Source: Acidobacteriota bacterium (GTDB taxonomy: Bacteria; Acidobacteriota; Blastocatellia; RBC074). Taken from it: a DNA stretch of 64,000 bases. Positions 2,226 through 7,722 of the stretch are shown one piece after another. Position numbers and translations under genes: made by a program. The notes beneath the pieces were generated by a model that did no database searches, was not told the DNA's origin, and was given only the letters and a program-made list of their open reading frames with translations. The stretch spans positions 251 to 64,250 of the forward strand of contig JBBIWA010000023.1 in the NCBI GenBank assembly GCA_037439425.1, in the 5' to 3' direction. Numbering within the stretch: position 1 is the first letter of the stretch; every line of letters starts with the position of its first letter.

Positions 2226-3569
2226 TCACTCGGCGCGCAAAGCCTCAATTGGATTGAGCCGCGCCGCGCGGCGCGCCGGAAAGACTCCAAAGACAATCCC
2301 GGTCAGCGCCGAGACCAGAATCGCCGCCGCCGCGGCCCACAAAGGCAGCGTGATCGGCAACCCACTGGGCCGTGCGGCGGCCCAGACAACCAGGCCGGCG
2401 CACAACAAACCGATCAGACCTCCTGACAGAGTCAGTAGAGTCGCCTCCACCAGAAACTGCGCCAGCACGTCGCGCCGCCTCACACCAACAGCCATACGCA
2501 CACCGATTTCTCGAGTGCGTTCGGTGACTGAAGCCAGCATCATATTCATCACCACCACGCCGCCCACCACCAACGCGATGGCCGTCAGCGGATAGATCAC
2601 CAGTCCAACCAGTGTGGTCAGCCGACCGGCGAACGCCTCAACGCTTTTGGCCGTGACGACGCTGAAATCATCATCCGCACCGTAGTCCAGCCGATGGCGC
2701 AGACGGAGCGCGAATCGCATACCCTCTTCCACCTCCAGGCGCGTCAGCGATGACTCCGGTCGCGCGCGTCCCAGAATCGCCAGCGAACGTGAACGTTCAC
2801 CAAAGACCTTGGTGAAGTTCCCTAACGGAATTTGCAAAAAGGCGTCCTGCGATTGCCCAAAGTTCGAGCCGCGCGCCGCTGCCACGCCAACCACTTCATA
2901 AGGCAACGCGCCAATGAAGATCCAATCGCTAATCGGGTCTTGCCATGGGAAAAGCAGATCGGCCACATCCGCGCCGATAATGGCCACCGGACGGCGATAA
3001 GCGTCATCAGTCGCGGTCAACTCGCGCCCACGCTCGATCTCGATATTCGAGAGAAAAGAGATATTGGAGGTGACGCCCTGCACGACAATTCCATTGAGCG
3101 ATTGATTTCCCCGCCTGACCGAGAGCGCCGCGTCACCTTGCGCGCCGATTTCGATGGTTTCGCCCAACCGGTCGCGCAGCCAGCGAACATCCTCAAGCGT
3201 CAGGTCCGGTCGCCGCGAACGCGCAATCACCCAGGCCCGCGCATCCCCGATGAAATCCTGGAAATTGGCCTTCTCAACGCGCACCACATCGGGCGCGAGC
3301 GCCCTTGTCTCTTGAGTGATGAATGCTTGCCCCCCTTCAAGCAAAGCCGCCACCAGAACGATCACGGTCATTCCTACCACGATTCCAATCACCGTCAACC
3401 CTGACCACAATCGGTTAGAAAGAATCGAGCCGATCGCCGCGCGCAAGGCCTCGTTCCATCGAGAGAGCGCGCCAAGCTCCGGCGTGACGAATCTCCCATC
3501 TCGATGGACAGCCTCAACGCTGACGCTTTCAGATAGCGGCAACGCCACTTTGTTGGCCGATTCACTCAC
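2226..3569 (-). CDS. ABC transporter permease, FtsX/MacB family (MacB periplasmic domain plus FtsX 4-TM C-terminus).
   Basis: 447 aa. N-terminal TM, large periplasmic domain, C-terminal FtsX-like TM bundle ending ...NPIEALRAE. Confidence 0.8.
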   Translation of the reverse strand: MSESANKVALPLSESVSVEAVHRDGRFVTPELGALSRWNEALRAAIGSILSNRLWSGLTVIGIVVGMTVIVLVAALLEGGQAFITQETRALAPDVVRVEKANFQDFIGDARAWVIARSRRPDLTLEDVRWLRDRLGETIEIGAQGDAALSVRRGNQSLNGIVVQGVTSNISFLSNIEIERGRELTATDDAYRRPVAIIGADVADLLFPWQDPISDWIFIGALPYEVVGVAAARGSNFGQSQDAFLQIPLGNFTKVFGERSRSLAILGRARPESSLTRLEVEEGMRFALRLRHRLDYGADDDFSVVTAKSVEAFAGRLTTLVGLVIYPLTAIALVVGGVVVMNMMLASVTERTREIGVRMAVGVRRRDVLAQFLVEATLLTLSGGLIGLLCAGLVVWAAARPSGLPITLPLWAAAAAILVSALTGIVFGVFPARRAARLNPIEALRAE

Positions 3570-4024
3570 AGCTCACCAAATTGTTCGGCTACCACGCTGT
3601 GGCGGTAATCGAACATCCTCTCCAATCTTTTCCGTATGAACCAGCCAGCGATCATCTCGCCCAGAACCCCCATCGGTGCGGCGTACTCAACCTCGTCGGT
3701 CATCAGCGTCCCGCCGCGAGCGGTCGGCTCGAAGCGATGCCGATGGCGCCAGTAAGCGAAAGGCCCTTGTCGCTGAACATCAGTGAAAAGATGGGGCGGC
3801 TCGTATTCCGTGTGCTCGGCCACCCAGAGCCGCCAGAATGGTCCGAGATAAACTTTGAAAACGACGCGCGTCCCAACCTGCAAACCATTTGCGCGCTCCA
3901 AAACCTCGACACGCTCCCAGGGCGGCGCCAATCGCTCGACCGCGCCCGGCTGCTCGTGCCAGGCAAAGACCACATCGGGCGGCGCGGCTATCTCCGTTTG
4001 TTTGATGAATCGTCGCGTCTTCAT
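3566..4024 (-). CDS. SRPBCC (START/Bet v1-like; polyketide cyclase/dehydrase-like) family protein.
   Basis: 152 aa. Motifs WRHRHRFEP and MFDYRH, paralogous to ORF 7216..7722. Overlaps the FtsX start by 4 nt. Confidence 0.65.
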   Translation of the reverse strand: MKTRRFIKQTEIAAPPDVVFAWHEQPGAVERLAPPWERVEVLERANGLQVGTRVVFKVYLGPFWRLWVAEHTEYEPPHLFTDVQRQGPFAYWRHRHRFEPTARGGTLMTDEVEYAAPMGVLGEMIAGWFIRKRLERMFDYRHSVVAEQFGEL

Positions 4025-4028
4025 CGGC

Positions 4029-4970
4029 TTAAAATCGCGCTCCGAGTCTGACCAGATGCTGCTCCAGCATCTGGAAGTCTTCGATCAACAGCGCGCGCGT
4101 CTGTCTGATCTTGTTGATCAAGGACTCTTCCTTAGCGCCGCCGATCCATAGTTCGATTCTCGCCGGTAATTCTCGCGCGATCTTTCGCACATCTCTCAGC
4201 CCGGCTTTGGCCCCGTTGGCGCCGATAAATCCCAGGATGACCGCCTGTGGCGCGGCCTTCTGCGCGGCGGTTACAATCTCTTCGGCCGGGAGATTGGCGC
4301 CCAGGTAGACGATGCCAAATCCACCTCCGACCGCCAACATCGCCGAGAGCAGAATGCCGAATTCGTGCTGCTCTCCGCTCGGCGTGGCGAACAACAGTTT
4401 GCTGGTCGGTGCAGTTCGACGATAGAGCGGAATCAGCGATCCCAGCAGGTTCCGCAACAAGGCCGAGGTCATGTGTTCCTGCGCGACGCTCAACTTGCCT
4501 TCGTGCCATGCCTCACCCACCTCCTGCATCAATGGCAGAGCGACCCGATAAACCAGCTCGCGCGGCGTCAACCCTGCAACCAGCAGGGCCAACTCCTTTT
4601 CCGCTTCACCGTAATCCAATCGCTCAATCGCGGCTATCACCGAGCGCGGAGGATGCAAAGGCTGCTCTGGCCATCTCTTCGTCATCGCCTCCACACTCTC
4701 GATCATTGATGATGGCATCGGCGACGGCCCAGCCATCAGCGCCCGCAGCTCTTCGTCATCAAGCGCGGCCACACGGCCAATCGCATGCCCTCTCTCCACC
4801 ACGGCGTTCAGCAGTCGCAGACGCTCCACATCGGCCTCAGTGTAGAGCCGTCCGCGCCTGTCGCGCTGTGGCGTGACGACCTGATAGCGCCGCTCCCAGG
4901 CGCGCAGCGTGTCAACGCTGATCCCGGTCAGTTTGGAAACGGCGCGAATTGGATAGAGCAAGGTCTTCAT
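4029..4970 (-). CDS. carH: MerR-family transcriptional regulator with a C-terminal cobalamin-binding domain (CarH/LitR-type light-responsive repressor).
   Basis: N-terminal MerR HTH (IRAVSKLTGISVDTLRAWERRY). C-terminal B12-binding Rossmann-like domain with the E/DxHxxG signature (GEQHEFG). Confidence 0.75.
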   Translation of the reverse strand: MKTLLYPIRAVSKLTGISVDTLRAWERRYQVVTPQRDRRGRLYTEADVERLRLLNAVVERGHAIGRVAALDDEELRALMAGPSPMPSSMIESVEAMTKRWPEQPLHPPRSVIAAIERLDYGEAEKELALLVAGLTPRELVYRVALPLMQEVGEAWHEGKLSVAQEHMTSALLRNLLGSLIPLYRRTAPTSKLLFATPSGEQHEFGILLSAMLAVGGGFGIVYLGANLPAEEIVTAAQKAAPQAVILGFIGANGAKAGLRDVRKIARELPARIELWIGGAKEESLINKIRQTRALLIEDFQMLEQHLVRLGARF

Positions 4971-4987: not shown

Positions 4988-6202
4988 TCAGCCGGATTGC
5001 CTGGTCTTGACTAAGCGCGAGACGTCAAATCCCTTGGCCGCCGCCTGCTCGATGATCCTTTGATAAACCGCTTCGTCCATCTGCGGCGTGCGCGAGAGTA
5101 TCCACAGATATTTCCGATCCGGCGAGCCGACGACCGAATAACTGTAATCGGGCGCGAGCGCGATGATCCAGTAATCTCCCCAGACCGTCGGAAGCCATCC
5201 GAGCCACGCGGGCGCGAACCGCACTTTCAGTTTGGAGTTCGGCCTCCTCTCGCCGGCAAGTCTGGCTCTGCCTTCAGCCCTGGCGATCTGGCCGTTTTGT
5301 TGGCGGCATTCATTGACAACTTTCAGTTGACCATCATCGAGTTGCGAATAGGTCGCTGTCACCTCGCCAGCGCATTTCTTCTGAAACTGGTTCGGCAACC
5401 GCGCAACTTCATACCACTTTCCAGAATAACGCGAAAGCTCAACCGAAGCGACGACTTCCAACGCTGGTGGACGATCTCTTTCCGCCACAAGCGGCAGATT
5501 CGGCAGGATAAGAACCAGCGCAAACAATTTTCTCAACACAACTCCTCCGCTCGAAAGACGCTGTTTAGTTGCAGCAGATGACCCATCCGCTTTCGTCAGC
5601 AGGTAACGAAAGGCCGGCGGGCTGGCTTTGATCTCCAGCGGGACGCGCTCGACCACTTCCAATCCGGCATTGCGCAGGGCGAGGACTTTGTCCGGATTGT
5701 TCGACATCAATCGCACCCGACGCGCTCCCAATTGTTTGATGATCTCGGCGCACTGGTTGTATTCGCGCGCGTCAACCGCAAAACCGAGTTTGAGGTTGGC
5801 TTCAATCGTGTCGGCACCCTGATCCTGCAAGGCATAGGCGCGAATCTTGTTGATGATGCCGATTCCGCGCCCCTCTTGCTGCTGATAAACGATGACGCCT
5901 GCGCCTGCGGCTTTGATCATCTGCATGGCGCGTCTCAGTTGCAGCCCACAGTCGCATTTCAATGAATGAAACACATCGCCCGTCAGGCATTGCGAATGAA
6001 TGCGCACGAGAGCAGGCTTGGCCGCGTCAATCTCTCCCTTGATCAACGCCACAAATTCTTCGTCTTCTTCGTCGCTGATGACACTGCGAAATCCGGCGAT
6101 CTTGAACCGCCCAAATTCTGTCGGCAAATCAGCTTCGGCTTCCAACCTCACGGTCGCACTCTCTGTTCTTCGGTCTTGCCCGATATCCAAACGCATAAAC
6201 AC
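4988..6202 (-). CDS. ribA: GTP cyclohydrolase II (RibA) domain read in-frame into a Blc-type bacterial lipocalin domain. A signal-peptide-like segment lies between them.
   Basis: Residues 1-215: [20 protein letters not shown] zinc motif and the ERVPLEI tail of RibA. Residues ~222-404: hydrophobic [18 protein letters not shown], then [11 protein letters not shown]...YLWILSRTP...GFDVSRL, matching Blc lipocalin. Confidence 0.7.
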
Positions 6203-6318
6203 CCTCCTTCAATCTCTTCCGCCTCCGGCCATCACATCCCACGCGCATTCTTCACCCCTTGACGCATCATCGCCACACTCGCCGGAAGCGCGCCCCCCGG
6301 GCCGGGAGCGATGCCGGT

Positions 6319-6347
6319 ATTATAGTTATATGTCCAATATTTGTCAA
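6319..6347 (-). promoter_or_regulatory. Consensus sigma70 promoter on the minus strand driving the ribA-lipocalin/carH operon.
   Basis: TTGACA (rc of 6342-6347), a 17-nt spacer, then TATAAT (rc of 6319-6324). Confidence 0.6.
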
Positions 6348-6399
6348 GCCACTGCCAGATATATCGGACAAAATATCAGCTATTGTCTTGGAAATAGAC

Positions 6400-6428
6400 T
6401 TGACAAATATTCTAAGAGCCATTATCTT
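6400..6428 (+). promoter_or_regulatory. Sigma70-like promoter on the plus strand driving the fasciclin gene.
   Basis: TTGACA at 6400-6405, a 17-nt spacer, TATCTT at 6423-6428. Shares the TTGACAAATATT motif with the divergent promoter. The palindrome GACAAAATATCAGCTATTGTC lies between them (6366-6387). Confidence 0.55.
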
Positions 6429-6577
6429 GTCCACGGTTGAAGGGGGGAGGTGAATGATGTGGCGAGCGGTGGTCATTCGGATGATCGTCGCTCGGCTGAT
6501 GAAAGAGGCTTTCGCCAAAGGATCTGTGCGTTGGCGGGAAATCACAAACAGAACAACATACAGGAGAAAGAAAAGAG

Positions 6578-7078
6578 ATGTATCTCAAGTCGAAAGTTGC
6601 AAGTTTGATCTTAGTTGTCGCCGTTGCTGTGGTGATGGCAATGCCGCCGGTCAGCGCGGCTGACAATCACGAGAAGAAGGATATCGTTGACACAGCGGTG
6701 GCCGCAGGTAACTTCAAGACTTTGGCTACTGCCTTGGAAGCAGCTGGTCTGATCGAGACGTTGAAGGGCCAAGGCCCATTCACCGTCTTTGCTCCGACCG
6801 ATGAAGCTTTCGCCAAGTTGCCTGCGGGCACGGTCGAGTCGCTGCTCAAGGACAAGGAGAAGCTGACGCAAATCCTGCTCTACCACGTCGTCCCCGGCGC
6901 TGTGATGGCCAAGGATGTGGTCAAGCTCAAGTCGGCGAAGACCGTCCAGGGATCATCGGTCAAGATCAACGCTAAGGGCGGCAAGGTAATGGTGGACAAT
7001 GCCAATGTCATCAAGACCGATATCGCGGCGACCAATGGCGTGATCCACGTGATTGATACTGTCATCATTCCCAAGTAG
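6578..7078 (+). CDS. Secreted fasciclin (FAS1) domain protein.
   Basis: Signal peptide, then [14 protein letters not shown]...LLYHVVPG...[13 protein letters not shown], which are FAS1 hallmarks. Confidence 0.85.
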
Positions 7079-7215: not shown

Positions 7216-7722
7216 ATGAAAATTTGCCTGCTCGAACGCATGCAGATAATCCCGCGCTCGCTCAGTGAAGTGTTCGCTTTCTTCAGCGACGCTTTCAATC
7301 TGGAGCGCATCACGCCGCCGTTTTTGCGGTTTCGCATCCTGACGCCGCCGCCGATCAGAATGGCTGCGGGAACGGTGATCGAATACCGGTTGCGGCTCTT
7401 TGGCGCGCCCATTTTCTGGCGGACGCTGATCGAAAGCTGGAGGCCGGAGGAGTCATTCGTTGACATACAGATGAAAGGGCCTTACTCGCTCTGGCGACAC
7501 ACGCATTCGTTTGAGGAAACTAGACCAGGGCAAACTCTGATGCGCGACACGGTCGAATACGCCCTTCCATTTGGTCTGGCGGGAAGACTTGCTCATTATC
7601 TGTTCGTCAGACGATGGCTGGATGAGATTTTCGATTACCGGGCGAGGATGACATCGTGGTTGTTGGGAACGGAAGACAAAGAGGAGAGAGAGATTGAACC
7701 GCTTAGAGCAATTGCTGGCTGA
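7216..7722 (+). CDS. SRPBCC family protein, paralog of 3566..4024.
   Basis: YSLWRHTHSFEE and IFDYRARM match the paralog motifs. 168 aa. Confidence 0.6.
   Translation: MKICLLERMQIIPRSLSEVFAFFSDAFNLERITPPFLRFRILTPPPIRMAAGTVIEYRLRLFGAPIFWRTLIESWRPEESFVDIQMKGPYSLWRHTHSFEETRPGQTLMRDTVEYALPFGLAGRLAHYLFVRRWLDEIFDYRARMTSWLLGTEDKEEREIEPLRAIAG

Follow-up and report, generated by a model that had tools for sequence, protein, structure and literature searches.

A ribA-lipocalin reading frame in an Acidobacteriota genome probably reflects a recent 5-bp deletion that ran two neighbouring genes together

In the 64,000-nucleotide stretch of Acidobacteriota DNA analysed here (the window), a single open reading frame on the minus strand encodes GTP cyclohydrolase II (RibA) followed by a lipocalin. 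Our analysis indicates, with a probability of roughly 0.78, that this frame does not represent an evolved bifunctional protein, but two separate neighbour genes that were run together by a recent 5-bp deletion in one lineage. In the ancestral state, ribA and the gene for a secreted lipocalin resembling Blc and plant temperature-induced lipocalins (TIL) would have been separate, tightly packed genes at the head of an operon. The deletion, located in the purine-rich codons for TKKEK, would have put ribA in frame with the lipocalin gene in this one lineage, and since no stop codon happens to intervene, both genes would now be read as one frame of 402 or 404 amino acids.

The merged frame itself is as described in an earlier note on this DNA, which had reported one open reading frame without a stop and, at its junction, a hydrophobic segment and an internal GTG around position 5539. 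The maximal continuous frame runs from GTG 6202 down to 4988 (404 amino acids), has no stop codon between the RibA part and the lipocalin part, and contains both Pfam domains, i.e. GTP_cyclohydro2 (residues 22-188, E 1.7e-64) and Lipocalin_2 (residues 254-402, E 8.9e-50). Between these two domains lie the signal-peptide-like segment and the in-frame GTG, the latter at 5539-5537. The translated form is probably the 402-amino-acid version that begins at ATG 6196 rather than at GTG 6202, because a Shine-Dalgarno sequence (GGAGG) sits 6 nt upstream of this ATG; GTG 6202 directly abuts the same GGAGG. The database copy of the protein (P0001) also has 402 amino acids and starts at ATG 6196.

In the RibA half, the catalytic domain (5639-6139, minus strand) is recognized by PF00925 (216.8 bits, cut-off 23.3), TIGR00505 (233.7 bits, cut-off 205.85) and PRK00393 (239.1, cut-off 148). 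Its zinc-binding cysteines C72, C83 and C85 as well as the core motifs occupy invariant columns, align with E. coli RibA and are intact, as are the other invariant columns, with P87L as the single lineage-specific change at an otherwise invariant site. The domain thus has not decayed, and decay of ribA as a pseudogene was rejected, since one unique change at invariant sites does not exceed the number found in several relatives. A separate observation concerns residues 45-50 (approximately 6053-6070, minus strand), where a 3-residue insertion turns DEE into DEEDEE relative to 11 aligned RibA sequences; this insertion resembles a 9-nt tandem duplication, i.e. a second slippage-type change in the same ribA.

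Close relatives of this RibA are stand-alone proteins of about 222-263 amino acids, which end with TKKE(K/Q)MGHLL(Q/K)LNG(I/V)F directly followed by a stop codon. When read in frame, the RibA of the window departs from these relatives right after LLTK and does not contain the conserved TK..KMGHLL tail. It had been proposed that the RibA part ends where E. coli RibA ends, at TKADGSS; this does not hold, because E. coli RibA (2bz0_A) and the close relatives continue with TK(x)EKMGHLL. The corresponding tail is encoded in the window, intact but in what is now the +1 frame, by the ancestral 3' end of ribA (5533-5589, minus strand), which terminates with the stop codon TGA at 5535-5533. Translated in this frame, the tail matches the C-terminus of one relative at 9 of 14 positions (13 of 14 counting positives). 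A frame-corrected RibA aligns with 2bz0_A up to residue 195/196, including KMGHLL, with a gap of two residues, and also aligns with the RibBA protein of M. tuberculosis.

The point at which the frame changed can be located in the DNA. Alignments with three relatives (L002, L096 and L009) put a 5-nt gap at the same place in the TKKEK codons, inside ACG AAA|GCG G at 5590-5596 (minus strand). Where these relatives have ACA AAA AAA GAG CAG, ACC AAG AAA GAG CAA or ACG AAG AAA GAG AAG, the window has lost five nucleotides (ACGAAA-----GCGGATG, as compared to ACAAAAAAAGAGCAGATG in L096). The gap falls approximately 19 codons upstream of the old ribA stop, and this stop is still present, within the stretch GTG-TTG-A (5539-5533) where the lipocalin starts. 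The junction is open as a consequence of a frameshifting 5-nt deletion. Given such a frameshift, a run of 19 codons stays free of stops with a probability of about 0.53 for this base composition, i.e. an open junction is unremarkable by chance, and the lipocalin frame is open upstream of the lipocalin start in L096 as well.

The substitutions in the displaced tail speak to the age of this event. Over the tail stretch, window and L096 differ at six nucleotides; four of these differences are synonymous in the old frame, whereas all six are non-synonymous in the new one. This argues for selection on the old frame during most of the divergence and, thus, for a shift that is recent relative to the split from L096. 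Two aspects could modify this picture. First, with the relatives compared being only 72-82% identical, the 5-nt gap could equal a 6-nt deletion, benign in itself, combined with an insertion of 1 nt. Second, CGA at 5553-5551 aligns with the TGA that serves as the ribA stop in L096, and this change from TGA to CGA, together with that from ATG to GTG at the lipocalin start (again in comparison to L096), could hint at a fusion that is older than a single event.

Downstream of the junction, the ancestral lipocalin gene (4988-5539, minus strand; 183 amino acids) can be delimited by comparison. Its start at GTG 5539-5537 aligns with the starts of its relatives: in all five relatives with a translated lipocalin N-terminus, the protein begins at the residue aligned with V222 of the merged frame, the position GVV|LRK, for which this GTG is the codon, and L096 uses ATG as its start codon there. 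An alternative start, TTG at 5536-5534 (minus strand), would overlap the old ribA stop in the tetranucleotide TTGA. The lipocalin gene has its own Shine-Dalgarno sequence (GGAGGAG, 5542-5548, minus strand), with the same spacing to the start as GGAGGA in L096. The earlier note had offered, as one of two readings, that the ribA stop was lost and that translation of the lipocalin begins at the internal GTG; the start site assigned there agrees with the relatives and with the conserved ribosome-binding site, but the stop was not lost.

The N-terminus of this lipocalin carries a predicted Sec-type signal peptide (5483-5539, minus strand), with a putative cleavage site before ERD. Accordingly built signal peptides, with a positively charged N-region, a hydrophobic core and a cleavage site of the xLA/ARA type, are found in the lipocalins of the relatives. 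Cysteine, and with it a lipobox, is absent from the N-terminal 55 residues of the lipocalin in the window and from the signal peptides of six relatives. What looks like an internal signal peptide is thus simply the one with which the product of the downstream gene normally begins, and what looks like a linker is the RibA tail plus a ribosome-binding site, both read in the wrong frame. The Lipocalin_2 domain (4997-5443, minus strand) matches PF08212 with 168.9 bits, and the closest solved structures, with scores of 138 and about 100 bits, are a plant temperature-induced lipocalin (8wb2_A) and Blc of E. coli. With the NCBIfam Blc subfamily model NF007786 the score is 126.6 bits, which is below the cut-off of 267. 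Thus, of the proposal of a Blc-type lipocalin, the domain assignment and the likeness to Blc and TIL can be maintained, but the label Blc is too narrow, given this sub-cut-off score and the missing lipobox cysteine.

The closest lipocalin in the databases (P0019, 74% identical; locus L001, GCA_043816365.1, JBDRHY010000389.1, 2283-3125 and 6001-6705) features a C-terminal extension of 50 residues. Its gene follows that of a MacB/FtsX permease, not ribA, and is found near a gene for a Lumazine_bd_2 protein. A link of such lipocalins to lumazine or flavin may recur in another form.

How are the two genes arranged in related genomes? The comparison of orthologues, which the earlier note had named as a check, shows ribA and the lipocalin gene to be separate and in different frames in both L096 and L009. 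In L096 (metagenome contig Ga0114938_1089949; RibA 82% and lipocalin 79% identical to the window), the TGA of ribA is followed by TCGGAGGACTT, i.e. 11 nt that contain GGAGGA, and then by the ATG of the lipocalin gene. In L009 (CAZSOE010000236, a metagenome-assembled genome of an uncultured Chloracidobacterium), ribA (548-1213) and the lipocalin gene (1206-1760) overlap by 8 nt and are followed by carH (1783-2700). In the Blastocatellia loci L006-L008 and L086, the lipocalin gene heads the operon and ribA is absent.

A genuine and selected bifunctional protein, in which RibA would be tethered to or delivered together with the lipocalin via an internal hydrophobic linker, was the other reading put forward initially. 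The continuous frame and the integrity of both domains would be in line with it, and CGA at the old ribA stop as well as GTG in place of the lipocalin ATG would be compatible with a fusion that has already settled. We nevertheless consider it very unlikely. The fusion is a singleton: among the top matches from 5.8 billion protein clusters, P0001, which is identical to the window sequence and was traced to a 66-kb NCBI contig and to a Logan contig, is the only protein that combines RibA and lipocalin domains. A full HMMER pass found no second fusion in the top 150 of 1.84 billion representatives, a rank that any fusion with at least 45% identity would have reached, and a search with the lipocalin half found none in 160 lipocalin loci from genomes and metagenomes. 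Moreover, the two genes are separate in the relatives that share their order, the supposed linker is nothing but out-of-frame RibA tail and Shine-Dalgarno sequence, a conserved RibA motif is lost from the fused product while the DNA keeps the tail out of frame, and the substitution pattern reveals selection on the old frame. Since the architecture does not recur in independent genomes among the collections searched, a conserved bifunctional fusion was rejected. Matches in two stretches were also obtained with P0121, P0122 and four other proteins, in which Pfam finds only GTP cyclohydrolase II and no lipocalin domain; P0121 and P0122 are RibA duplications or RibBA.

A different concern is that the organism may actually possess two intact genes, with the indel introduced during sequencing or consensus building, for instance as a surplus A in ACGAA(A)GCGG, combined with a deletion of two codons that would be harmless by itself. 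The singleton nature of the fusion, the undecayed RibA domain and the perfect out-of-frame preservation of a conserved tail with its invariant His speak in favour of such an artefact. In addition, frameshifted calls do occur in assemblies: in P0021, a RibA relative with 81% identity on an ENA contig of 82,865 nt, the C-terminus after NNPDKV (APCAMPDSKWWSEF...) matches an alternative ribA frame instead of the RibA sequence and therefore represents a second, independent frameshifted ribA call in public assemblies. Against an artefact, however, the NCBI contig of the metagenome-assembled genome and the Logan contig were produced with different software and are identical over 7.2 kb, a k-mer assembler builds only those junctions that are present in several reads, and the site is a run of three A rather than a long homopolymer. 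Altogether, an artefact appears unlikely, although an error or a minority allele retains a small probability. The Logan contig, assembled independently from SRR11582143, agrees with the window at every position over 7,209 nt, which makes a recent deletion in the organism likelier than an assembly error, and we regard the deletion, whether fixed or polymorphic, as probably real and recent.

If two genes were indeed joined by such a deletion, what would be made from them? Ribosomes that initiate at ATG 6196 meet no stop before 4988 and would produce a RibA without the KMGHLL tail and its invariant His, extended at the C-terminus by the pre-lipocalin. Initiation at the internal Shine-Dalgarno sequence and GTG 5539 would still yield the normal exported lipocalin, which should persist because GGAGGAG (5548-5542) and the GTG/TTG start are intact. 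The chimera may either be degraded, or the Sec system could engage its internal signal peptide, with cleavage after LVA then releasing nearly the two original products. The event would be recent and neutral to mildly deleterious, rather than an adaptation.

Programmed +1 frameshifting at ACG-AAA-G would represent yet another solution, by which some ribosomes would synthesize RibA with its native tail, such that RibA and the fusion would both arise from one message. In principle, a tRNA-Lys paired with AAA could slip by one base onto the downstream AAG, and the +1 frame encodes the fully conserved tail and a stop. Yet GCG, the codon in the A site, is common and neither slow nor a stop; the site comes without an upstream stimulatory Shine-Dalgarno sequence or a long homopolymer; and all relatives encode the tail in frame, with none showing such an arrangement. 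This solution is therefore hardly credible. We also give only a very small chance to the more elaborate scenario of a fixed deletion allele whose chimera is put to use. In one form of it, the internal signal peptide would serve as a signal-anchor that holds RibA at the inner face of the membrane, with the lipocalin being exported and then released by signal peptidase; if true, this would be a self-resolving fusion that links the synthesis of flavins with the export of a lipocalin for light stress. In the other form, low-level +1 frameshifting at AAA-G would provide native RibA along with the fusion.

Whether merged or separate, ribA and the lipocalin gene occupy the head of an operon with the order ribA-lipocalin-carH-SRPBCC-FtsX permease. 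The regulator encoded by the next gene (4029-4970, minus strand) combines a MerR-type helix-turn-helix with B12-binding_2 and B12-binding domains (PF13411, PF02607 and PF02310). Of the motifs defined for CarH proteins, Wx9EH and ExHx2Gx41SxV/Tx22-27GG (PMC8156234), it has Wx9EH as WHEGKLSVAQEH at residues 155-166, EQHEFG at 200-205 and GG at 277-278 in the right spacing; the strict second pattern is not matched, and the Ser of SxV/T is a Gly. The same exchange, at residues 247-249 in the window, is found in the CarH homologue of L009 (GFI/GFV in the two proteins), with Wx9EH and ExHxxG being kept. The opposite strand carries genes for a fasciclin, an SRPBCC protein, a photolyase, CrtB, a CrtI-like protein, an alpha/beta hydrolase, a polyprenyl synthase, a GT2 glycosyltransferase, a second desaturase and a Caroten_synth protein. 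Two proteins of the SRPBCC/polyketide-cyclase-like type flank the locus and are distributed over the two divergent operons, one encoded right after carH (3566-4024, minus strand) and one right before the photolyase gene (7216-7722, plus strand). Both may belong to the same regulon and bind lipids or carotenoids.

Transcription of the operon is predicted to start from a promoter at 6319-6347 (minus strand), which matches the consensus at 12 of 12 positions (TTGACA-17 nt-TATAAT). CarH operators are known to consist of three or four tandem 11-bp direct repeats of nAnnTnnACAn at a promoter (PMC8156234). Here, TTGACA (6347-6342) and TGGACA (6336-6331) are located 11 bp apart and overlap the -35 box, with both elements and their spacing kept in five related loci, and this pair resembles a CarH operator in sequence. 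A third repeat (CTGGCA) is weak, leaving two clear repeats only, and a strict operator scan (three nAnnTnnACAn repeats, at least 11 of 15 matches) gave no match. The 12-mer TTGACAAATATT forms the -35 region of each of the two divergent promoters, with the copies inverted relative to one another (6336-6347 on the minus strand and 6400-6411 on the plus strand), which suggests that one regulator controls the ribA operon as well as the fasciclin-photolyase-crt side.

The 5' leader (6203-6318, minus strand) carries a conserved motif, GCGCTTCC(G/A)GCGAG(T/C)G, that is also found in L086 (460-583), L006 (3515-3609) and L096 (1-118) and is present irrespective of whether ribA or the lipocalin gene comes first. 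Rfam searches that covered the whole window with the gathering threshold, and 6150-6650 with E<=1, yielded no credible riboswitch or other known RNA, and an alignment fold of four leaders produced only a weak small hairpin (-7 kcal/mol).

The domains, the motifs and the conserved promoter with the operator-like element support the proposed assignment of the regulator to the CarH type, beside photolyase and carotenoid genes. The same evidence underpins the genomic context of the proposed light-regulated operon, while light regulation itself is a prediction from sequence: the operon is probably repressed in the dark by its own CarH-type B12 photoreceptor. Related links have been described, with LitR regulons of Pseudomonas including photolyase and the GTP cyclohydrolase I FolE (PMC9758184), and with a light-induced lipocalin, under a regulator that is unknown, encoded beside crt genes in Chryseobacterium (PMC7064467). 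In the literature searched, we found no report of ribA and a lipocalin gene under CarH. The operon would be a new but unsurprising member of the CarH type. In several Blastocatellia/Chloracidobacterium genomes, a photolyase-carotenoid cluster faces the gene for a secreted lipocalin, which is predicted to be co-transcribed with carH and in some cases follows ribA. These arrangements suggest that the supply of flavins and a lipocalin that binds lipids or carotenoids are part of the light-stress response in non-phototrophic Acidobacteriota, which would modestly extend the known CarH/LitR regulons.

With respect to the fusion, the case calls for caution. A striking and unique architecture—a cytoplasmic enzyme joined to a signal peptide and a periplasmic lipocalin—emerges from a read-through of adjacent genes that is generated by an ordinary frameshift in a single assembled genome, i.e. 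by a kind of event that is well known. Annotation pipelines as well as function prediction based on fusions ('Rosetta stone') would be misled by such read-through.

In comparison to known systems, the operon comes closest to those of L009 and L096, which share its gene order ribA-lipocalin-carH with 65-82% protein identity, the ribosome-binding site before the lipocalin gene and the signal-peptide N-terminus. L009 also has the promoter architecture of the window, and for L096 too little upstream sequence is available to tell. In contrast to the window, both have the KMGHLL tail in frame, with ribA stopping before, or overlapping, a lipocalin gene that starts with ATG in another frame. The CarH/LitR regulons of Thermus thermophilus, Myxococcus xanthus and Bacillus megaterium, and those with class II LitR in Pseudomonas, likewise place a B12-binding MerR regulator with Wx9EH next to carotenoid and photolyase genes, and the 11-bp-spaced TnnACA repeats that overlap the -35 box resemble their operators (PMC8156234). 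The window differs from these by the cotranscription of ribA and a lipocalin gene, by two clear repeats instead of three or four, and by Gly instead of Ser in SxV/T.

At the level of the two proteins, the lipocalin shares the Lipocalin_2 fold family with E. coli Blc (1qwd) and plant TIL (8wb2), but unlike Blc it is predicted to be a secreted protein of the signal-peptidase-I type rather than an outer-membrane lipoprotein. The catalytic domain of RibA aligns with that of E. coli RibA (PDB 2bz0) from residue 6 onwards, including the conserved zinc-cysteine triad, whereas the in-frame protein of the window lacks the TKaeKMGHLL segment and instead runs on for about 200 residues. A RibA domain inside of a longer polypeptide also has a precedent in RibBA (DHBP synthase-GTP cyclohydrolase II), which is an established RibA fusion. 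RibBA, however, joins two enzymes of one pathway and is conserved across phyla, whereas the junction of RibA and lipocalin is a single one made by a frameshift.
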